IMG/VR virus record: IMGVR_UViG_2744054895_000001
Coordinates: 30,790-94,789 of that record
Source: a virus
Taxonomy: Duplodnaviria; Caudoviricetes
Length of the DNA stretch: 64,000 bases
Strand: one strand, 5' to 3'
Shown here: piece after piece, positions 21,651-63,370 of the stretch
Layout of the letters: every line of letters begins with the position of its first letter
Numbering within the stretch: position 1 is the first letter of the stretch
The notes under the pieces: generated by a model
The model's database searches: none
What the model was told of the DNA's origin: nothing
Seen by the model: only the letters and a program-made list of their open reading frames with translations
Translations under genes and position numbers: made by a program

Positions 21651-22533
21651 TTACTTTATGACTGCGTAGGAATTCGGACCGTAACTGTCCGCGACCTTGA
21701 AGTCCCATCCCTCGTGCGCGAACGTGAGCTGGGAAACGGCGAATGTATTGCTTCCAGCGTCGAGGTCACCAAAGGCAACCGAGGTGGGCCAAGCGTTGTA
21801 GAGGCGCCATACCGCCTTTACTGCTGCCTTGCTCTTGGTAACCGGGTGGTCGATGAGCATGATGTCGATCGTGGCCCGGAATTCTGAGCCGGTATCGGAT
21901 CCGGATCCGTTGCCCTGCATGACGTCGAAGAGCTGGTACATCCAGTTCACGAGTTTCTGGTCGCCCGGCATCATTCCCTTGGAAAGGGTGACGGGGCTGA
22001 AGTCGCTCTGACCCAGAGGCTGTTACCTCTCCGGTTTCCCGGAGCGGGCTGGTCATTTCTGCCAGCCTCTCGCATTCTCATGCGAGTTCGGACTCTATCT
22101 TCACCCCAGAGGGGTGTCCCGTACATAGTCTCTGGACCTTCCCGTCGGTTTCCCAGGCGGGCTCGGCTGCTGATTTTCCCTACCCTCGGACTTCTCAAGC
22201 CGTCGCGCTCAGGCTTTCGCCCCACGCTGTGGCGCCGAGGTCTAACAGGACGTTCCAGCAATTCTCGGGATTTTCACTCGCTACTTACGCAGCGAGGGCC
22301 CAGTCAAGTTGAGGCATTTTCTGAGTGGTCGTGTTCATGCCGCCGGCCCTGTATGCGATGACGTCAGTCGTCACGGAAAGGCCGGAAACCGACATGAAGC
22401 CGAGCTTTGGATAGGCAGAGGACAGCTTGCCGACCTGGCTGATCTGGACGTGGAACTTGAACGAGCGAAGGGGGTCCGTCTGTCGCGAGGCCAGGCTCTG
22501 GCTTTGCGAGACGGTCTTGAGGGTGGATGCCAT
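21651..22533 (-). CDS. Tail tube protein (T4 gp19-like), two exons 22533-22312 and 22013-21651, 194 aa spliced
   Basis: Exon 1 DPLRSFKFHV..GF..VSGL..YRAGGMNTTTQKMP joins in frame to GQSDFSPVTLSKG..WRLYNAWP..LTFAHEGW. Confidence 0.9.
22014..22311 (-). ncRNA. Group I self-splicing intron (298 nt, no ORF)
   Basis: 5' exon ends in U, intron ends in G; P AAUUGCUGGAA, Q AAUCAGCAGC, R CAGAGACUA, S AAGAUAGAGUCC; P1 GCCU/GGGC with U.G; P10 UGACU/GGUCA. Confidence 0.93.
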
Positions 22534-31496: not shown

Positions 31497-32783
31497 CTAG
31501 TTCGTCTCGGCGATGACGACCGAAGCGTCGGTGATCAAGCCGAGCCCGAAGATCGAATACCAGCTCAGCAGGTGTTCACGACCGAAGTCCTGGACGCCGC
31601 CGTCCCTCAACTCGACCGGCAGGGAGATCGCATGACCGAAGGCATTGTCACCAATGCAAATACTCTGGTAGACGTCGGCAGGGGTCGCCCCGTTGCCGTT
31701 TCCGATCTTCTTGGTTTGGGTGGTCTCGATGAAGATCACGTCATCGATCCTGCCGATCTCGCCGAGGCTGAAGGCCCCCGGCTGCGCGTACTTCGAGGAC
31801 TCGATCCAGGTCGGGTCCTCACGCAGCCAGCGCGATTGATGCGGATGCACGAAACACACGTAAACATCGCCCAATCGCGGGATGTTTCGGGTCGCGAGGG
31901 TCTCGACCATGTCCTTGACCAGGGCGGAGGTGAACCGGTGGTTGCCGGTCAGGCCGGCGCGGTTCGGGGCCGGGGCGCCCTTGTCGTAGGGGGAGATGCG
32001 GGTAATCGCGTTACCCGTGGTGGCGAACTTGTCGTAGCCGTAGAGCACGGAGGTGGCCTGGAGGAGCGTGTCCCGCGCCTGCTCGTCAAGGTACTTCGCC
32101 ATGTTCCGCCCCAGGAGGCGAGAGCCGGACGCGAGCACGTCATCGAAGGACGAGTTGAGCAGGAGCTCGGAGACGGCGATGGCGTAGCCGTGCTCACTGA
32201 CAGTAATCGAGAACTGACTGGCCGTCAGGGCATGGGTTTCCATGCGGACACCTTCGACGAGCTGCGAGGCGTCGCCGAGGTTGTCGTAACGCATGAAGTG
32301 GATCACGAGGCCGGGGCTGACCCCCAGCTCAGTCTTCTTGCAGCTCTGTTACCTCTCCCCTCAGGGAGCGGGCTGGTCATTTCTGCCAGCCTCTGCATCT
32401 TTCCCATTGATGCAGGCCAGACTATATCTTCATCTCCAGTTCCAGTGGGCCGAAGCACCTAGCCACTGGGCCTGTTGGAGATGCCACCCGTGTAGTCGTT
32501 ACGGAGTCCCAGGTGTTGGGTTCCCTCGGTATTCCCCGTGGTGACGAATGAGTGCTACGAGGAGGAGGGGTTCACCGATACAGGGCGGTTTTCACTGACA
32601 GGTCGCCCTGTCAGGCGGCCAATATCAAACCGCGAACTGCTCGAAGCGCAGGATCGGCATCGACTGGAACAGAATTTCCTTCGACCAGAGTTCCTGGATG
32701 GCCGGGGAAAGCTGCGAGTTCGCGCCGGCGTAGTTGGTCGGAGACGCCGACAGACGCGGCGTACCGGTGATGGCAGAAGCCAT
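31497..32783 (-). CDS. Major capsid protein (N4-gp56 family), two exons 32783-32629 and 32340-31497, 332 aa spliced
   Basis: Exon 1 MASAITG..WSKEILFQSMPILRFEQFA(V) plus exon 2 KKTELGVSPGLVIHFMRYDNL..EHGYA..VHP..GEIGRIDDVIFIET; junction codon GT|C. Confidence 0.9.
32341..32628 (-). ncRNA. Group I self-splicing intron (288 nt, no ORF)
   Basis: Exon GCGGU pairs with GCCGC (U.G at splice site); P UAUCGGUGAA, Q AAUACCGAGG, R GUAACGACUA, S AAGAUAUAGUCU; terminal G; removal restores the frame. Confidence 0.93.
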
Positions 32784-32811
32784 GCTTTACATCCCTTACT
32801 GATGCGGCGGG

Positions 32812-33600
32812 TTAACCGAACATACCCTGACGCGCCGCGTTGCCAGCGGCCGGCAGGAGCTGGCCGCGGAGCTTGGCGTACTCGGACATGGGCATGTTCT
32901 TGATGTCGCCAGCGGAATACTGGCGGTAGCCGGCGTTCGTGTCGGCGGGACCGACGCCGTAACCGGTGGGAGCGGTGCCGCGCATCGAGGCCCGCGCAGC
33001 GACCTGGGTCTGCTGGATCTGGGCGACGATGGCAGCGCTCTTCTGCTTCATCAGCTCGACGCTGGCGCGCAGCTCGTCCTCGGTGTTGCCCTGGACGAGG
33101 TCGACCAGCTCGGGGGCGATGTCGTCGGCGGCCTGCGAGAGCAGTTCACCGCGGACGTTCTGGAGGCGCGTGTACTCCTGCTCGCGCGAGAACAACTCGC
33201 GGTCGGCCTCGTACTTGGACTGGAGGTCGGTGAAGCGACGCTCCCACTCCTCTTCGCGCTCCTTGAGCAGGCTCTTGGCGGACAGTTCCGCCTGTCGCTT
33301 CGCCTCTGCCTCATCCTCGGCCTGCTTGCGGGCGGTTGCCTCCGCGGCTTCCTTCTCCTCGCGGGCCTTGCGGACGGCTTCCAGCTCTTCCTTGGTGGCC
33401 TTCAGGATCTCGTCCTGCTGGTTGAGGCGGCCGTAGAGCTTCTCGCGCTCCTCACGCCGGACCCTCTCCAGGTCCTCGGCGCTGAAGCGACCTTCAGCCT
33501 GCGGATCCTTCGGCTCCTCGGGGACGACCGGCACGGTGATGACCTGGTCGTTCGGGACGTCGTTGGGGGCAGGGGCGGTGGCGGTGGTCGGAACAGTCAT
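32812..33600 (-). CDS. Capsid scaffolding protein
   Basis: Glu/Lys-rich coiled coil; C-terminal IKNMPMSEYAKLR; between portal and capsid. Confidence 0.8.
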   Translation of the reverse strand: MTVPTTATAPAPNDVPNDQVITVPVVPEEPKDPQAEGRFSAEDLERVRREEREKLYGRLNQQDEILKATKEELEAVRKAREEKEAAEATARKQAEDEAEAKRQAELSAKSLLKEREEEWERRFTDLQSKYEADRELFSREQEYTRLQNVRGELLSQAADDIAPELVDLVQGNTEDELRASVELMKQKSAAIVAQIQQTQVAARASMRGTAPTGYGVGPADTNAGYRQYSAGDIKNMPMSEYAKLRGQLLPAAGNAARQGMFG

Positions 33601-57003: not shown

Positions 57004-57489
57004 ATGTCTCATCGCCAGGCGATTACCCGTGAGGATTACCTGTCGGCGCTGAGTGCCGCCCAGTTCGGCGATGTCGCTCCGTTTCTGGCGCGATGCTGCC
57101 CGGACTGCGGTGCGGGTGATGAGTCCGCATCGGATGGGAAGCACGCTGTCATGGGCGGCAGTGTCGTGATCGGATGCGACGGATCCATGCTCGTGAACCC
57201 CAATCTTCTGGGATTCAACGTGGAACTGTGGCTCGACTGGCGTCATATGGAATCCGACAACGTGCCCGAGGACGCCTCTGTGTGGGCATATGAGGGCGTG
57301 ATCTGGCGGACCGGCGCGAAGGTGCGTCCGGCCCGGCCGACGGAGTACGAGGACGGTCTGACCGGAACTCTCGTGCGTATTGCCCTGGAGCACAGCTTCG
57401 GCGATACCGAAGCAACGCTCTGGGTCCAGTGGCACAACAACACGAGCGGTCCGGACTATCACGGATACGGTGACATCGTTCTGATCTGA
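57004..57489 (+). CDS. hypothetical Cys/His protein (paralog of 60233-60931)
   Basis: GAGAGGAGAG RBS; CPDC..HAVMGGSVVIGCDG..VNPN..WLDWR. Confidence 0.75.
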   Translation: MSHRQAITREDYLSALSAAQFGDVAPFLARCCPDCGAGDESASDGKHAVMGGSVVIGCDGSMLVNPNLLGFNVELWLDWRHMESDNVPEDASVWAYEGVIWRTGAKVRPARPTEYEDGLTGTLVRIALEHSFGDTEATLWVQWHNNTSGPDYHGYGDIVLI

Positions 57490-57490
57490 A

Positions 57491-57558
57491 AGTCGTCCCG
57501 GCGACTCTAAATAGGCGTTAGGCCGGGAGCGTCCGTACGGAATTCCGTACGGGGTCGC
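57491..57558 (+). ncRNA. Pistol self-cleaving ribozyme 1
   Basis: P1 AGUCG/CGACU, loop UCCCGG pairs with CCGGGA, UAAAUAG, P2 GCG/CGC, UUAGG, GCGU, P3 CCGUACGG hairpin, G|U site 57554/57555. Confidence 0.9.
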
Positions 57559-57611
57559 AGCAGCGCTGCGGGTCAGGGGTGGTGCCCTGTCTGTGTCGAG
57601 AGGAGAGAGCA

Positions 57612-58139
57612 ATGAGCATCAGTCCGATCAACTGGTCCGAGCGCATCATGCGTCCCCGGTCCGGTGCGTGGAAGCAGTGCCCTAACTGCAAGCGGCGGAA
57701 CGTCTCCATTCGCTCCCCGCATTCCCACACCGACGGCCGACCGTGCAAGTTCGTGGTGATCTACCGCACGTACTTCACGATGGACATGATCCATGACGGC
57801 GACTACGGCCAGATCAGGAACGAGGACGGCTCTTTCGGTGACGGTCCCCTCCAGACTTACGAGATTGTGGACTGCGCGCCGAAGGACGTCTCCGGTCCAT
57901 GGGACAACCCCGTCAAGCTCGCAATCGACGCCATTCGTGACGCCGATTGCGCGTACGACGAGGGTGCCGACTGGTTTTACCACCACGACGGCTCGTACAT
58001 CCGAGACCACTACTCGGGTGAGCGCATCGACCCGTCCGCGCACCTCTGGGGGTTCACGGACGAGGAAGACGAGCGCGTCCACCACGTGATCCAGCGCGGG
58101 TGGAAGCAATTCTGGGCGAGCCTGCGTAAGGCCGCCTAA
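57612..58139 (+). CDS. hypothetical protein (CxxC..H..C)
   Basis: GAGAGGAGAGAG RBS, ATG 57612. Confidence 0.75.
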   Translation: MSISPINWSERIMRPRSGAWKQCPNCKRRNVSIRSPHSHTDGRPCKFVVIYRTYFTMDMIHDGDYGQIRNEDGSFGDGPLQTYEIVDCAPKDVSGPWDNPVKLAIDAIRDADCAYDEGADWFYHHDGSYIRDHYSGERIDPSAHLWGFTDEEDERVHHVIQRGWKQFWASLRKAA

Positions 58140-58140
58140 C

Positions 58141-58208
58141 AGTCGACTCGGCGACTCTAAATAGGCGTTAGGCCGAGTGCGTCCGTACGGAATTCCGTGC
58201 GGGGTCGC
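58141..58208 (+). ncRNA. Pistol self-cleaving ribozyme 2
   Basis: Same fold with compensatory pseudoknot ACUCGG/CCGAGU; G|U site 58204/58205. Confidence 0.9.
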
Positions 58209-58241
58209 AGGGGTGGTTCCCTGCCACGAGAGGAGAGAGCT

Positions 58242-58952
58242 ATGTCTGCGCAGACCCTCGAAATGGTTGCGTCCGACTTTCTGTACGGCTCCACCGAGGA
58301 GGCCCTGAACGAACTGTTCGCGGCCCCGCCGGCCATGGAGCCGCACACTGACGCGCGCTTCGACAAGGGCAACGACACGATCGTCATCGACGGGGTGCAG
58401 TTCTACGCCAAGCGCGTGGACTACCACCGTGAGATGGACGAGAAGTTCGTCCAGTGGGTGATGGAAAACCGCCAGGGGTTTCCGGTCTACGGCGACCCGT
58501 CCTCTGCGGACGGCGAGTCGTTGGAACTCTGGGCACAGTCCATCACGGACAAGTACTTCGGGTCCCCCTACATCTCCGGCATCGACACGGACGGCTACGA
58601 GTCGTTCATGCCGAACGGGGTCAAGGGCCAGTTCTTCCGGTACGAGGACGAGACGTACGTCGCCCTGTGGCAGCAGTGCACCGGATACCGCGCACGCACG
58701 CGTCCGATGGTGTTCCACGTGTCCTGCCACGAGTCCGCCTACCTGCTGGACGACGACAAGGCCACGGCGTACTGCACCGAGTGCGAGGACGTCGTGTTCG
58801 ACATCGAGTCCGGCGGGCAGCACATCAAGCGCATCGACCGGAACGGCGAAGAGATCGACGACGCCCCGGAGGTGTCATTCGACGACCTGGTCGGCCATCC
58901 CGTCTGCCCCAAGTGCGGTTCCGATCTGCGTGTCGAGGCCGCGAATTTCTGA
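58242..58952 (+). CDS. hypothetical acidic protein with C-terminal zinc ribbon
   Basis: RBS; CTEC...CPKCG. Confidence 0.75.
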   Translation: MSAQTLEMVASDFLYGSTEEALNELFAAPPAMEPHTDARFDKGNDTIVIDGVQFYAKRVDYHREMDEKFVQWVMENRQGFPVYGDPSSADGESLELWAQSITDKYFGSPYISGIDTDGYESFMPNGVKGQFFRYEDETYVALWQQCTGYRARTRPMVFHVSCHESAYLLDDDKATAYCTECEDVVFDIESGGQHIKRIDRNGEEIDDAPEVSFDDLVGHPVCPKCGSDLRVEAANF

Positions 58953-58961
58953 ATTCATTCA

Positions 58962-59021
58962 TGCCGAAACTCCGTGAGGAGTCGTCCCAAGGTGGTGCTT
59001 GGGACCTGATGATGGCAGCCA
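58962..59021 (+). ncRNA. Type II hammerhead ribozyme 1
   Basis: UGCC-GAAA-CUCC(GUGA)GGAG-UC|GUCCCAAG(GUGGUG)CUUGGGAC-CUGAUGA-U-GGCA; cut after 58983. Confidence 0.92.
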
Positions 59022-59053
59022 ATGTCTGAGTCAGTGTTGAGAGGAGAGAGCTT

Positions 59054-59617
59054 ATGTCTGACCTGCGCATCTACGTGGCGAGTCTGTCCGACTACAACAA
59101 CAGCATTCTCCACGGTCGATGGATCGACGCTGACCAGGATGTCCAGGCCATCAACGATGAGATCGCTGAGATGCTGAAGGAGTCGCCTGCGGCCCAGAAG
59201 TATGGCGATGTCGCGGAGGAGTATGCCATCCACGACTACGACGGATTCGGGGATTTCAATCTCGGCGAGTATGAATCGCTGGAGAAGATTACGTCCATTG
59301 CCAAGGCACTGGATGAGTTTCCCTCTTGTGTAGTCGCTTGGTTCTTCCGCGAGTGCTCCCACATGGAGTTCGACGAGATTGTGGACACCATCCGCGAGAA
59401 GTCGATCACCACGATCGAGGATCAGTGGGGCAATGAAACGGACGCGCTGGCTGAGTATCTCTTCGACCAGATCGAAGAGAGTGGTGACCTGCCGGAGCAG
59501 TACAAGAATCACCAGATGGCCATAGCCAAGAGCATGGCGCACGATGCCGTCTGCGGCGGGGAATACAACATCCTCTACGAGGGCGGCGGCAAGTACCACA
59601 TCTTCGAGGTCCTGTGA
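59054..59617 (+). CDS. ardA: Antirestriction protein ArdA (DNA mimic)
   Basis: RIYVASLSDYNNSILHGRWIDA..EEYAIHDYDGF..LGEYESL; very acidic. Confidence 0.88.
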   Translation: MSDLRIYVASLSDYNNSILHGRWIDADQDVQAINDEIAEMLKESPAAQKYGDVAEEYAIHDYDGFGDFNLGEYESLEKITSIAKALDEFPSCVVAWFFRECSHMEFDEIVDTIREKSITTIEDQWGNETDALAEYLFDQIEESGDLPEQYKNHQMAIAKSMAHDAVCGGEYNILYEGGGKYHIFEVL

Positions 59618-59622
59618 CCAAT

Positions 59623-59682
59623 TGCCGAAACCCCTTCGGGGGTCGTCTCAGGGTGGTGCCTGGGGCCTGACGATGGCAGCCA
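59623..59682 (+). ncRNA. Type II hammerhead ribozyme 2
   Basis: UGCC-GAAA-CCCC(UUCG)GGGG-UC|GUCUCAGG(GUGGUG)CCUGGGGC-CUGACGA-U-GGCA; cut after 59644. Confidence 0.92.
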
Positions 59683-59705
59683 TTGTCGGTTTCGAGAGGA
59701 GAGTT

Positions 59706-60140
59706 GTGACGAGACACGCTATCCGGGCGATGCGAGGAATAATGCGTCGCAGGGATCAGGACTACGCGTGGATTCCATCGCTGGGCCATGGAGTTCTCTA
59801 TGACCCCGATAACCCTACCTGCCCGCACTCTGTCACAAGAGCGGCAGTTCGTGCGCTCCCGAGCGGAACACGCACGATGTCTTGCAGGATAAGTAACAGG
59901 TCTCGCGCGTTGGAGCTCGTAGTCCGAGAATTGGCTACGGAATGGTACTGCGACATCGCAGACATACGATCTATCGTGGCCGACAGGTTCCGGGGATTCG
60001 GGGACAGCGAACAATCCGCACTCGACGATGCAATCACGAGTGGCCTTACTTCCCCGACTTCTCTGGAGAACGTCAAGCACGGGTGCATGACGGAATTCCG
60101 CAAGACGCCGTTCGGTGTGGTCATGCTCGATCAGGGTTAA
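59706..60140 (+). CDS. hypothetical protein
   Basis: GTG after GAGAGGAGAG; lower GC than neighbours. Confidence 0.65.
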   Translation: MTRHAIRAMRGIMRRRDQDYAWIPSLGHGVLYDPDNPTCPHSVTRAAVRALPSGTRTMSCRISNRSRALELVVRELATEWYCDIADIRSIVADRFRGFGDSEQSALDDAITSGLTSPTSLENVKHGCMTEFRKTPFGVVMLDQG

Positions 60141-60146
60141 TCAAAA

Positions 60147-60206
60147 GCCGAAACCCCTTCGGGGGTCGTCGTGGGGTGGTGCCCACGGCCTGATGACGGC
60201 AGCCGC
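60147..60206 (+). ncRNA. Type II hammerhead ribozyme 3
   Basis: GCC-GAAA-CCCC(UUCG)GGGG-UC|GUCGUGGG(GUGGUG)CCCACGGC-CUGAUGA-C-GGC; cut after 60167. Confidence 0.92.
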
Positions 60207-60232
60207 TGAAGTCAGTTCTGAGAGGAGAGAGC

Positions 60233-60931
60233 ATGAAGCCCGAGGAATTGGAGTACCTGGACGCCGTGCGTCAGACACCCCTCGGACGCATCGAGCCTTA
60301 CCTGTCTTCGGTCTGTCGTGACTGCGACGGACAGGTGGACTCGTCGAATTTGGCTGGGCACGTGATGATCGGCTCACATGTCGTTATCTGCTGTGAGGGT
60401 TACTTCATGGTGGACCCGAACGTGGTCGGCATCCCGTCGCCGAATTGGTCGGACTGGCGCGAGAAGGCAGAGTCCAATCCCAAGTCGCTGTATAAGCAGG
60501 GTGAGTTCCTGGCTGCGCACGCCCTAGAACTGGGCGTCTCGTACGACAGCGATCTTCCTGCGTCCGCCTTCCACCCGAAGCTCGTCGGCGCGGCCATTGC
60601 CGCTCTGCGTGCATGGCTGGAGGTCAACTGGGGCAGCGCAGCAGTCCGCGAGGCCGAAAAGGAGGCCCTCGGTCACACCGGAGACGGGATGTATGTCGGC
60701 ACGGTCGACAAGCTCAACTACCAGGGGAAGACCCTGTGGGTTGGTGATCGTGTGCGCTGCGCGAACCAGGATGCGCAGGGGAACGACCTGTCTTTCTCCG
60801 GGGTGCTAGCCAAGATCGAGCTGGAGTACTGGGGGTCCGAACTGAAGCCGACGGTCAATGTGCGCGCTCCCGAAGCGACGCACGACGATCCGATCGGATG
60901 GGAGGACCTGAGCCGCGTAACGTCGTCGTAG
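60233..60931 (+). CDS. hypothetical Cys/His protein (paralog of 57004-57489)
   Basis: CRDC..HVMIGSHVVICCEG..VDPN..WSDWR. Confidence 0.75.
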   Translation: MKPEELEYLDAVRQTPLGRIEPYLSSVCRDCDGQVDSSNLAGHVMIGSHVVICCEGYFMVDPNVVGIPSPNWSDWREKAESNPKSLYKQGEFLAAHALELGVSYDSDLPASAFHPKLVGAAIAALRAWLEVNWGSAAVREAEKEALGHTGDGMYVGTVDKLNYQGKTLWVGDRVRCANQDAQGNDLSFSGVLAKIELEYWGSELKPTVNVRAPEATHDDPIGWEDLSRVTSS

Positions 60932-60948
60932 TTTGGATTCGCCTACAA

Positions 60949-61010
60949 GCCGAAACCTCCGAGAGGAGGTCGTCGTGGGGTGGTGCCCACGGCCTGATGA
61001 AGGCAGCCGC
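60949..61010 (+). ncRNA. Type II hammerhead ribozyme 4
   Basis: GCC-GAAA-CCUCC(GAGA)GGAGG-UC|stem I-CUGAUGA-A-GGC; cut after 60971. Confidence 0.92.
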
Positions 61011-61037
61011 TGAAGTCAGTTCTGAGAGGAGAGAGTT

Positions 61038-61538
61038 ATGGGTCTGAGCAAGCAGGATGTCCGCGCGATCAGGAACGCTGATGGACTGGTGTTCTTCCAC
61101 AACGCCCCGATTTCTCGGGGCGGTGAGCGCATGAACTGGCTCAAGTGCATCCGCGACGGTTCGAAGACTTCGAGTGGTTTCGAGGACTTCCACGTCGTCC
61201 GGCTGGAGAGCACGTCCATCACGTACTACGGGGAGGACGCGCACACCAAGCACTCGGCGTCCCTCGGTGACGAAAAGGTCGTCGGGTCCGTCTACATCAG
61301 CTCCCCCGGCATGCTGCCGCAGCATGAGACCTGGATGCGAGCGCTCCGCGAGGGTGATGAACTCCGGGTCCAGATGTGGCTGGGCAACAACAACGGCTAC
61401 CTCAAGGAGTCGGGGATGGCGCATGACTACGCGTGGTTGGACATCCGGCGCCCGAAGACGGACGCCAGGACAAGGTACTGGCTGGGCAATGTGATCTGCC
61501 CGGCGACCAGCACGTGCCGCATGCTGAGGGCGCTCTGA
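61038..61538 (+). CDS. hypothetical protein
   Basis: Strong RBS, 166 aa. Confidence 0.75.
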   Translation: MGLSKQDVRAIRNADGLVFFHNAPISRGGERMNWLKCIRDGSKTSSGFEDFHVVRLESTSITYYGEDAHTKHSASLGDEKVVGSVYISSPGMLPQHETWMRALREGDELRVQMWLGNNNGYLKESGMAHDYAWLDIRRPKTDARTRYWLGNVICPATSTCRMLRAL

Positions 61539-61602
61539 ACCAGCGGTAGAAGGCTCGCCGGCTGAGGTGTGTTCTCTGTCGGCGGCCCTGCCGTGCCTAA
61601 TT

Positions 61603-61662
61603 TGCCGAAACTCCGTGAGGAGTCGTCGTGGGGTGGTGCCCACGGCCTGACGAAGGCAGCCA
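61603..61662 (+). ncRNA. Type II hammerhead ribozyme 5
   Basis: UGCC-GAAA-CUCC(GUGA)GGAG-UC|stem I-CUGACGA-A-GGCA; cut after 61624. Confidence 0.92.
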
Positions 61663-61694
61663 ATCGCTGAGTCAGTATTGAGAGGAGAGAGCAC

Positions 61695-62519
61695 ATGAGC
61701 ATCAGAAAAGTGCTGGTCTCGGCTGATGACGTTCACGCGTACGAAGCCATGGTCGACACGGAGGCTCCGCTGTGGAACGGGTTTCTTTCGCCCCGCTTCA
61801 CTCTGGAGGCCGTGAAGCAGATAGCTTCTGACATGCAGGAGGATCTGAAGAGGTCCGGCTACGCCGATCAGGAGGAGATCCGCGTCATCGAGGCCCCCGG
61901 TTTGTTCGGGGAAAGCGAGGACAGGGTCGACGAGTTCGGCGAGCCGATCCAGATCCCTGCGGTGGTGGTGCTCCATATCAGTTGGACGTACGTCTTCGAT
62001 GACGACCCGGAGTCCTGCGCGAAGGTGGTTGCGCCCGGCAAAGACGGGTTGTACGCCGTTGGCGCATGGGAGTGGACGTGGAGCGAGATCAGTCCGAACA
62101 TCTCCCAGCGCGCGGAGTATCTATTCGACTTCGCGACCGCGGCCATCAATGAGGCTGTCTGGTACGAAGTCGAGCCGACTGAGGACGACGAGGACCAGAC
62201 GCTCGGCATGGAGTGGGAAGCCGTCGAGGCCCTGAACCTGGGGATCAACAGCGTGCATCTCAACATGCGCTCCGCCTTCATGTCCGCGCTCGGGGAGTTC
62301 ATCGACGCCAATGCGCAGGTGCTGAACGGCATCCCTGCCGACCAGGCCGGCTATGCCTTCTGGCACTCCATGCGCGGGGTGGACGGCATCAAGTCCCGTT
62401 CGTTCCTCGGAAGGCGTGAGATCCCCGCAGAGGTTCGCCAGCGTCTCCACGAGACGGCGCGTACGCACTCGTACAGCAGCGTTCGATTCGTCGGAGACAT
62501 GCTCCACATCGAGAGCTAG
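61695..62519 (+). CDS. hypothetical acidic protein
   Basis: Strong RBS; WNGFLSPRFT..GLYAVGAWEWTW. Confidence 0.75.
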   Translation: MSIRKVLVSADDVHAYEAMVDTEAPLWNGFLSPRFTLEAVKQIASDMQEDLKRSGYADQEEIRVIEAPGLFGESEDRVDEFGEPIQIPAVVVLHISWTYVFDDDPESCAKVVAPGKDGLYAVGAWEWTWSEISPNISQRAEYLFDFATAAINEAVWYEVEPTEDDEDQTLGMEWEAVEALNLGINSVHLNMRSAFMSALGEFIDANAQVLNGIPADQAGYAFWHSMRGVDGIKSRSFLGRREIPAEVRQRLHETARTHSYSSVRFVGDMLHIES

Positions 62520-62527
62520 CTCAACAA

Positions 62528-62589
62528 TGCCGAAACCTCCGAGAGGAGGTCGTCGTGGGGTGGTGCCCACGGCCTGATGAAGGCAGCCA
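62528..62589 (+). ncRNA. Type II hammerhead ribozyme 6
   Basis: UGCC-GAAA-CCUCC(GAGA)GGAGG-UC|stem I-CUGAUGA-A-GGCA; cut after 62551. Confidence 0.92.
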
Positions 62590-62620
62590 ATCGCTGAGTC
62601 AGTGTTGAGAGGAGAGAGCT

Positions 62621-63217
62621 ATGCGGACTGCTTCAACTATGATCGGTTTCGCGATCGTCGAGGACGACGACTTCGACCTGGAGAACTTCAGCGACTCCGA
62701 AGCGCTCATCAAGGAGTGCGGCGAGAAGCTGGAGTCTGGGGAGTGGACCGTCTGCGGCATCGTGGCCGTGGTCCACGGCGAACTTCGATACGAGGCCGCC
62801 CTGTGGGGCACCGTCATCGAGGGCTGGCACTTCGGCAGGTACAAGACCGTGGAGGACATCCGCGACCCGTACCTCCGAGAGGTCGCCGAGGACATCGCCG
62901 ATCAGGCGCAGGATCTCATCCCGGTGACGCACGCCGACGACTCACCTGACGCGCTGGTCGGTCACGTGGTGGCCGTCCGGCCGTACTACTACGAGCCATC
63001 CGGTCCCGGATCCTTCCGCTCCAAGCGTTCCCCATTCATCGCCCGTGCGGAGGTGAAGGAGACGTTCGGGGAGGAGATGGTCGTCCTGCGGTTCCTGGAG
63101 GACGCCGGTCCGTGGCCGCGCGACGGTGCCTACTACCCGCGCGAGTTGCACAAGGTGCAGGCGTGCAAGTGCCCCGCATGTACCTCCGGTGGCATCGGCA
63201 TACACCAGGGAGCTTGA
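62621..63217 (+). CDS. hypothetical protein
   Basis: Strong RBS, acidic N-half, C-terminal CxCxxC. Confidence 0.72.
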   Translation: MRTASTMIGFAIVEDDDFDLENFSDSEALIKECGEKLESGEWTVCGIVAVVHGELRYEAALWGTVIEGWHFGRYKTVEDIRDPYLREVAEDIADQAQDLIPVTHADDSPDALVGHVVAVRPYYYEPSGPGSFRSKRSPFIARAEVKETFGEEMVVLRFLEDAGPWPRDGAYYPRELHKVQACKCPACTSGGIGIHQGA

Positions 63218-63280
63218 TCCAGACGCAGAGGACTCGTCGGCTTGCCATGCACGTCGGCCGACGGATCCGCCATGCCTTAT

Positions 63281-63343
63281 TGCCGAAACCTCCTGCAAGG
63301 AGGTCGTCACGGGGTGGTGCCCGTGGCCTGACGAAGGCAGCCC
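63281..63343 (+). ncRNA. Type II hammerhead ribozyme 7
   Basis: UGCC-GAAA-CCUCC(UGCAA)GGAGG-UC|GUCACGGG(GUGGUG)CCCGUGGC-CUGACGA-A-GGCA; covarying stem I; cut after 63305. Confidence 0.92.
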
Positions 63344-63370
63344 TTGGTCAGTTCTGAGAGGAGAGAGCAC

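Follow-up and report, generated by a model that had tools for sequence, protein, structure and literature searches.

A 288-nt insert was identified in the major capsid gene of a high-GC, Streptomyces-phage-like provirus. Its sequence and comparative structure make it very likely that this insert is a functional group I intron without an open reading frame (ORF), located in the late transcript of an HK97-type major capsid gene. The insert occupies positions 32341..32628 on the minus strand of the analysed stretch of DNA (64,000 nt, hereafter the window). It was recognized by a match to the Rfam group I intron model RF00028, by the colinearity of the gene product with its homologs once the insert is removed and by the intactness of its comparative secondary structure.

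Organization of the split capsid gene

The ORF list contained only a truncated capsid of 269 aa, as the first-pass annotation of this DNA had stated. This ORF has a GTG start (31497..32306, minus strand), and exon 1 appeared in a separate 52-aa ORF (32625..32783, minus strand). Exon 1 (32629..32783, minus strand) starts with ATG at 32783 and comprises 155 nt, that is, 51 codons and the first two bases of the Val52 codon, the last base being U32629. Exon 2 (31497..32340, minus strand) has a length of 844 nt with the stop codon included. Read on the minus strand, the end of exon 1 is GCG GT and is followed by T TGA, the stop codon (32627-32625) occupying intron bases 2-4. Deletion of exactly 32628..32341 joined GT to C AAG AAG and produced an open frame of 332 codons. 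Therefore, the extent of the insert and its consequence for the frame, both claimed in the first-pass annotation, were confirmed to the base.

The joined 332-aa protein was compared with gp147, the major head protein of Streptomyces phage BRock, which is encoded by an unsplit gene. The two proteins were 68% identical (E 4e-174), and the 18 residues around the junction aligned without a gap or mismatch. This colinearity points to exact ligation of the exons at GCGGU|CAAGAAG, the junction that had been predicted earlier. Comparison with intron-less homologs, which had been proposed as a check, was extended to the 80 IMG/VR loci that best matched the exon-2 protein, out of at least 600 matching stretches. 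An unsplit capsid gene with the same N-terminus was found in 76 of these 80 loci. Considering that this N-terminus is kept both in BRock gp147 and in the unsplit homologs, exon 1 is part of the capsid gene.

The pair of boundaries formed by U32629, which ends exon 1, and G32341, which ends the intron, was the only one that restored a frame colinear with the homologs. When both boundaries were moved by one base, Val52 was changed to Gly or the frame was broken, and these variants were rejected. A 3' splice site at CAG 32393, where the Rfam alignment ends, was also rejected, since the resulting join meets a stop after four codons.

The product of exon 2 matched PHROG 1357, major head protein (E 1.7e-52), and the Pfam family Phage_capsid_4 (PF25209; 27.9 bits, the cut-off being 27), and an SPP1-type portal gene lies two genes upstream of the capsid gene. 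Judged by these profile matches and by its position near the portal gene, the host gene of the insert encodes an HK97-type major capsid protein. A gene for a 262-aa, Glu/Ala/Arg-rich protein without a Pfam match is located between the portal and capsid genes (32812-33600, minus strand); by its position, it probably encodes the scaffolding protein.

Identification of the insert as a group I intron

A scan of the 601 nt at 32200-32800 with an E-value threshold gave a match to RF00028 at 32393-32636 on the minus strand (44.4 bits, E 4.4e-10), and in a search of the whole record, the capsid intron matched the same model with an E-value of 1.6e-11. The model stops at 32393, and the true 3' end, G32341, lies 52 nt beyond this point, past two more hairpins. 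The score was below the RF00028 gathering cut-off (44.4 versus 50 bits), which is an operational criterion and not a biochemical one, and the intron was missing from the default Rfam scan of the window. The introns of mycobacteriophages BAKA and LittleE, for which splicing has been experimentally shown, scored only 28.6 and 30.7 bits, respectively, with this model. Because these validated introns score lower, the sub-threshold score is a property of the family rather than a sign of damage. A close relative of the window phage (L006) gave no match to RF00028 at E <= 0.01, though a clear member of the family is present in it, and the capsid gene of another locus (L143) gave five matches, of 86.2, 57.7, 44.8, 36.9 and 33.6 bits. 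When a profile of the family was used, the capsid intron was found by nhmmer with an E-value of 9e-73, the profile including this same copy.

It is extremely improbable that the insert is an element of another kind, such as a group II intron, an insertion sequence or MITE, an intein, a region of translational bypass or an assembly artefact. The only trait shared with such elements is the interruption of the reading frame, whereas RF00028 was the sole significant Rfam match of the insert. An intein is contradicted by the insert being out of frame and meeting TGA at once, and an artefact is contradicted by the occurrence of homologous inserts at this site in other contigs that are independent of one another (L040, L087, L124 and L164). 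A length of 288 nt also far exceeds that of known translational bypass gaps.

Secondary structure of the intron

The structure was derived from a small comparative set of seven introns, namely, the window copy, the BAKA gp34 intron and five introns from related capsid genes. All elements described below lie on the minus strand. P1 (32615..32633) is formed by exon bases GCGGU (32633-32629) and intron base U32628 with the guide GGCCGC (32620-32615), its loop being 32627-32621; it is short, with 5 bp and one wobble. The splice-site wobble U32629.G32619 and the terminal (omega) G at 32341 were read directly from the sequence. P2 (32595..32614) is a hairpin of 8 bp with a GNRA loop, and compensatory changes were found at 7 of its 8 pairs among the seven introns. 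P3 (32588-32583 with 32489-32484) encloses, within the region 32484..32588 of the comparative structure, P4 (32578-32573 with 32531-32526), P5 (32570-32567 with 32537-32534) and P6/P6a (32525-32503).

P7, the guanosine-binding helix, is a pseudoknot (32499-32493 with 32424-32419) with the bulged base C32498, and it encloses P3' and P8 (32483-32431) within the region 32419..32499. The J8/7-P7' sequence is GAAGAUAUAGUC. The closing pair of P7 beside the bulged base covaries among the seven introns (G-C, A-U and C-G), and the other five pairs are invariant. The peripheral 3' domain (32355..32415) consists of P9 (32415-32393), with compensatory changes at 5 of 7 pairs, P9.1 (32391-32371), with such changes at 2 of 6 pairs, and P9.2 (32368-32355), which was read from the sequence only; a third 3' hairpin is present in every aligned copy, in a differing register. 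The start of the 3' exon, CAA, could pair with UUG (32622-32620) to form a P10 of 3 bp, compared with 6 bp in an intron that occupies the same site in a related locus (L040). Thus, P1 with its U.G pair, the conserved P/Q (P4) and R/S (P7) elements and the terminal G, all of which the first-pass annotation had listed, were found in the sequence and in the comparative structure.

The comparative structure comprises 65 pairs in P2, P3, P4, P5, P6/6a, P8, P9, P9.1 and the P7 pseudoknot. In the alignment of the seven introns, 96.7% of the cells of these pairs could pair, versus 31-43% when the partners were slid by one to three columns. Thirty of the 65 pairs were changed on both sides, and the observed covariation was reached by none of 500 shuffles. 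The RNAalifold prediction for the same seven introns contained 69 pairs, compensatory changes being present at 29, and its consensus recovered P2-P6, P8, P9 and P9.1. All 65 comparative pairs were intact in the window copy, which itself helped to define them.

Proposed course of splicing

Considering the intact anatomy and the validated relatives, we infer that the intron follows the established group I pathway of two-step, guanosine-initiated splicing. P1 would arise by pairing of the guide GGCCGC and the exon end GCGGU, the U.G wobble being at the splice site, and a free guanosine held in the P7 pocket would attack after U32629. The 3'-OH of the exon, once free, would attack after the terminal G32341, and ligation of GCGGU to CAAGAAG would restore the Val52 codon and the 332-aa capsid protein. 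Without an endonuclease of its own, the intron would be maintained through vertical inheritance and through recombination of phages with one another. Since unspliced RNA stops at the TGA three bases into the intron, production of the capsid protein depends on splicing.

The same stop codon directly inside the unspliced RNA would suit an all-or-none switch, and both P1 and P10 are short. These features could be taken to mean that efficient splicing relies on a protein of the host or of the phage (a chaperone or a maturase-like protein) or on particular conditions, with capsid output being regulated and not constitutive; for many group I introns, splicing in vivo requires helper factors. We consider this unlikely, because neither the intron nor the record contains a maturase- or endonuclease-like ORF, and the compact, well-paired core with three 3' hairpins would be typical of self-sufficient bacterial introns.

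Still less probable is a real intron that has lost splicing in a capsid pseudogene of a decaying provirus. The 94,789-bp record is classed as a provirus by IMG/VR, the RF00028 score is below the gathering cut-off and P10 is weak. On the other hand, the intron retains all 65 comparative pairs together with the U.G pair, an intact P7 pocket and the omega G, both exons are free of frameshifts and stops, and the joined protein retains its 68% identity to the capsid protein of a plaque-forming phage. The genes for portal, sheath and tube proteins nearby are intact as well, the completeness of the record was estimated by CheckV as 96%, and the relatives known to be spliced score even lower in Rfam. 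A functional, spliced intron therefore remained the preferred reading.

Known relatives of the intron

In a blastn search of phage records, the intron core (approximately 32375-32540) was 73-74% identical over about 160 nt (E 2e-13) to sequences in 30 Mycobacterium phage records. By sequence, the capsid intron belongs to the same family as the introns of BAKA gp34 and LittleE gp13. Both of these introns are spliced in vivo, as shown by RT-PCR for both and by N-terminal protein sequencing for LittleE (PMC3706429). The BAKA intron is 265 nt long and ORF-less (Pope et al. 2013, PMC3706429). Among the matching phage records, the BAKA gene is annotated as "minor tail protein, contains possible group 1 intron", and the LittleE gene, within which an HNH gene is located, is annotated as "major capsid protein containing a putative group I intron".

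The gp34 introns of the Cluster J phages BAKA and Optimus have the guide GGCCGC(C) and the 5' exon end GCGGU, and the BAKA intron could be aligned with the capsid intron from end to end. The P4-P7 core and the P9/P9.1 motifs are common to the BAKA and window introns, both are ORF-less and similar in size (265 versus 288 nt), and both reside in late structural genes of actinobacterial phages. In BAKA gp34, the guide sequence seen in the capsid intron is paired with GGCGGU, and at other capsid sites it is paired with CGGU. The BAKA intron differs in that its host gene encodes a minor tail protein in another phage lineage, identity falls to about 48% in the alignment of the 5' core compared with 69% in the 3' part, and the P5 extension and P8 are longer in the window copy.

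The LittleE gp13 intron resembles the capsid intron in splitting a capsid gene whose expression depends on splicing, as was shown in LittleE by RT-PCR and N-terminal sequencing (PMC3706429), and the two are 73% identical over 169 nt of the intron core. In contrast to the window intron, it is 820 bp long with an endonuclease ORF (annotated as HNH gp14), its insertion site is different and the two capsid proteins have no sequence relationship. For the Delta and Zeta groups of crAss-like phages, group I introns in capsid genes were also described, and one such gene is in five pieces (Yutin et al. 2021, PMC7886860). This five-fragment gene is comparable to that of the five-intron relative L143, whereas the crAss-like introns were found via endonuclease domains (in three of four segments) and in genomes of Bacteroidetes phages (PMC7886860). 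The window intron family is ORF-less and belongs to high-GC phages, and its likeness to the crAss-like introns is one of host gene. Capsid-gene group I introns are thus already in print. The first-pass reading that capsid production depends on splicing was upheld, and the rarity that it implied was overstated.

Classical phage group I introns are found for the most part in genes of DNA metabolism and in phages of low-GC or Gram-negative hosts, and homing endonucleases often accompany them; in these respects, the capsid intron is unlike them. It shares with them the ribozyme class, the chemistry and a stop codon soon past the 5' splice site. The classical examples are those of T4 td, nrdB and sunY, the SPO1 DNA polymerase gene and Twort orf142, which has three introns (PMC3706429).

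Distribution of the intron family in related loci

Four of the 80 best capsid loci (from at least 600 matching stretches) were split, namely, L006, L007, L008 and L040. In L006 and L007 (capsid protein 96% identical, about 83% nucleotide identity over 5 kb), introns of 286 and 283 nt, respectively, interrupt the Phe47 codon, 16 nt upstream of the window site; this position was designated site B and that of the window site C. The L008 intron is located after codon 38 (site A). L040 (1924-2499) contains two introns, of 270 and 264 nt, at sites A and C with a 42-nt exon between them. The last 88 aligned columns of this pair are 100% identical and the 5' cores 68% identical; by their sequences, the L040 copies are a patchwork. 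The 5' core of the window intron was 77-82% identical to the site-B introns versus 64% to the site-C intron of L040.

A wider sample was obtained with a 15-nt P4-P5 motif. It matched 106 stretches in IMG/VR, and 80 of the corresponding loci were used. Family copies were then counted in 160 loci with an nhmmer profile of the seven-intron alignment, coverage of at least 150 profile positions being required. This search revealed 78 copies with 67 distinct sequences, 73 of the copies being in the motif-derived loci. Homologs of the window capsid gene flanked 44 of the 78 copies. For 31 copies, the flanks were unlike any gene of the window; the downstream ORF was scanned in 25 of these cases, two short ORFs were left out and four copies had no ORF. 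Fifteen of the 25 scanned ORFs encoded a major capsid protein from another family (PF05065, PF03864, PHROGs 752 and 10), one encoded a Cluster-J-type minor tail protein, two were weakly endonuclease-like and seven had no assignment. A portal homolog was found beside one copy (L139:2209-2472).

Copies were located directly upstream of unrelated capsid exons in L134, L151, L122, L104, L133, L100, L090, L130, L105, L145, L108, L093, L158 and L150. At least 59 of the 78 sampled copies thus reside in capsid genes, which belong to no fewer than three unrelated families. On this sequence sample, the preference of the intron family is for capsid genes as such and not for one gene lineage. Two copies (L156:605-1153 and L149:1011-1703) are followed by ORFs with weak, sub-threshold matches to LAGLIDADG_3 or HNH_3, and they are possibly endonuclease-bearing members of the family.

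Within the window capsid family, 25 distinct single-intron junctions were resolved, and they represent about 11 sites, near residues 33, 38, 46, 52, 69, 99, 129, 138, 238, 301 and 311. At sites 46, 52, 129, 138, 238 and 301, the exon ends with CGGU and the guide is GGCCG(C), and at site 38, the exon ends with UCCU and the guide is GGGGA. The guide is matched to its own 5' exon (GGCCGC with CGGU and GGGGA with UCCU), and it differs from one insertion site to another. The automatic junction at site 99 of L143 gave a P1 of 2 bp; when the boundaries were placed 2 nt upstream by manual reading, the exon end ACGGU and the usual guide were obtained. The capsid gene of this locus (L143:5600-8020, minus strand) is in six coding pieces, one of them of about 11 codons. 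Three introns were found in each of L107, L114 and L152, and about four in L112 and L135.

A second intron in the tail tube gene and other RNA elements of the window

A second ORF-less group I intron, of 298 nt, was found at 22014..22311 on the minus strand (RF00028, 68.5 bits) in a T4 gp19-type tail tube gene. Pfam PF06841 matched both exons, the intron is inserted after Pro74, and the spliced product of 194 aa was colinear with BRock gp137. A 3' end at 22020 was also considered; it adds two residues that are absent from BRock gp137, and 22014 was preferred. The tail tube and capsid introns have in common a P9/P9.1 stretch of 35 nt that is 97% identical, which suggests exchange between these two intron copies.

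Self-cleaving ribozymes were found elsewhere in the window. At 57004-63346 (plus strand), each of nine consecutive ORFs is followed by such a ribozyme about 2-65 nt past its stop codon. Two of them are pistol ribozymes (57491 and 58141), seven are type II hammerhead ribozymes (58962 to 63281), and all nine exceeded the Rfam gathering scores. Judging by this arrangement, the row of genes looks as if it were cut to single-gene RNAs. No tRNA was found in the window.

Possible mode of spread of the intron family

A six-frame search of the whole 94,789-bp record gave no match to HNH, HNH_3, GIY-YIG, LAGLIDADG_1, LAGLIDADG_3 or RVT_1, and the ORFs within the capsid intron are short and have no assignment. 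This agrees with the earlier claim that the intron lacks a homing endonuclease ORF. A homing intron is recognized by an intron-encoded or adjoining endonuclease, and neither was found for the capsid intron.

A tentative explanation, to which we give only limited credence, is that the ORF-less family spreads without an endonuclease, by reverse splicing that the guide directs to the late mRNAs of highest abundance (capsid, tail tube and tail), with subsequent cDNA recombination. Such spread would explain why 59 of the 78 copies lie in capsid genes, three or more unrelated capsid families being represented, and why about 11 sites are occupied in one capsid gene family. It would also explain why seven sites and the BAKA tail gene have only the 4-nt CGGU in common, which fits a fixed guide, and why the most similar introns are shifted by 16 nt (site B versus site C) in phages with 83% nucleotide identity. 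Three features fit a choice of target by the guide together with recombination between copies: one fixed guide serves numerous CGGU sites, the intron is displaced by 16 nt in related phages, and the 3' domains are a patchwork.

It should be noted that guide pairing must be needed by any surviving insertion, whatever brought the intron there. Among 62 distinct unsplit alleles, the target motif was already present at site C in 17 (GCGGT), at site B in 10 (NCGGT) and at site A in 29 (ATCCT). Because the motifs are already common in unsplit alleles, asking whether the motif arrives with the intron does not discriminate.

Spread by reverse splicing was proposed for nuclear rDNA group I introns, which occupy many sites (PMC1299323), and direct evidence for this pathway is described as absent in a review (PMC3984707). 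The rDNA introns are similar to the present family in that related ORF-less introns occupy many sites of one abundant RNA, each fitting a guide of 4-6 nt. They differ in residing in eukaryotic rRNA and not in phage mRNA, and the mechanism is a proposal in both cases.

Implications

Considering that capsid introns were already in print, a single locus alone adds little. In the main texts of the literature, nothing specific was found on this family in Streptomyces phages, on a preference for capsid genes or on ORF-less capsid introns in viral metagenomes. For the window phage and its intron-bearing relatives, gene callers give a truncated capsid protein of 269 aa. Unless the intron is modelled, classification by capsid protein and matching of proteomes will therefore overlook the gene or assign it a wrong size. 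The default Rfam threshold does not flag this capsid intron family.

Assembly of the phage shell would need a working ribozyme, and the tail tube gene also contains an intron. With its capsid preference, its many sites that fit the guide over 4 nt, its patchwork of 3' domains and its lack of an endonuclease, the family is natural material for studying how endonuclease-free introns reach their sites. If spread by reverse splicing is true, this family would be a bacterial counterpart of the rDNA reverse-splicing model, and it could be tested by phage crosses.
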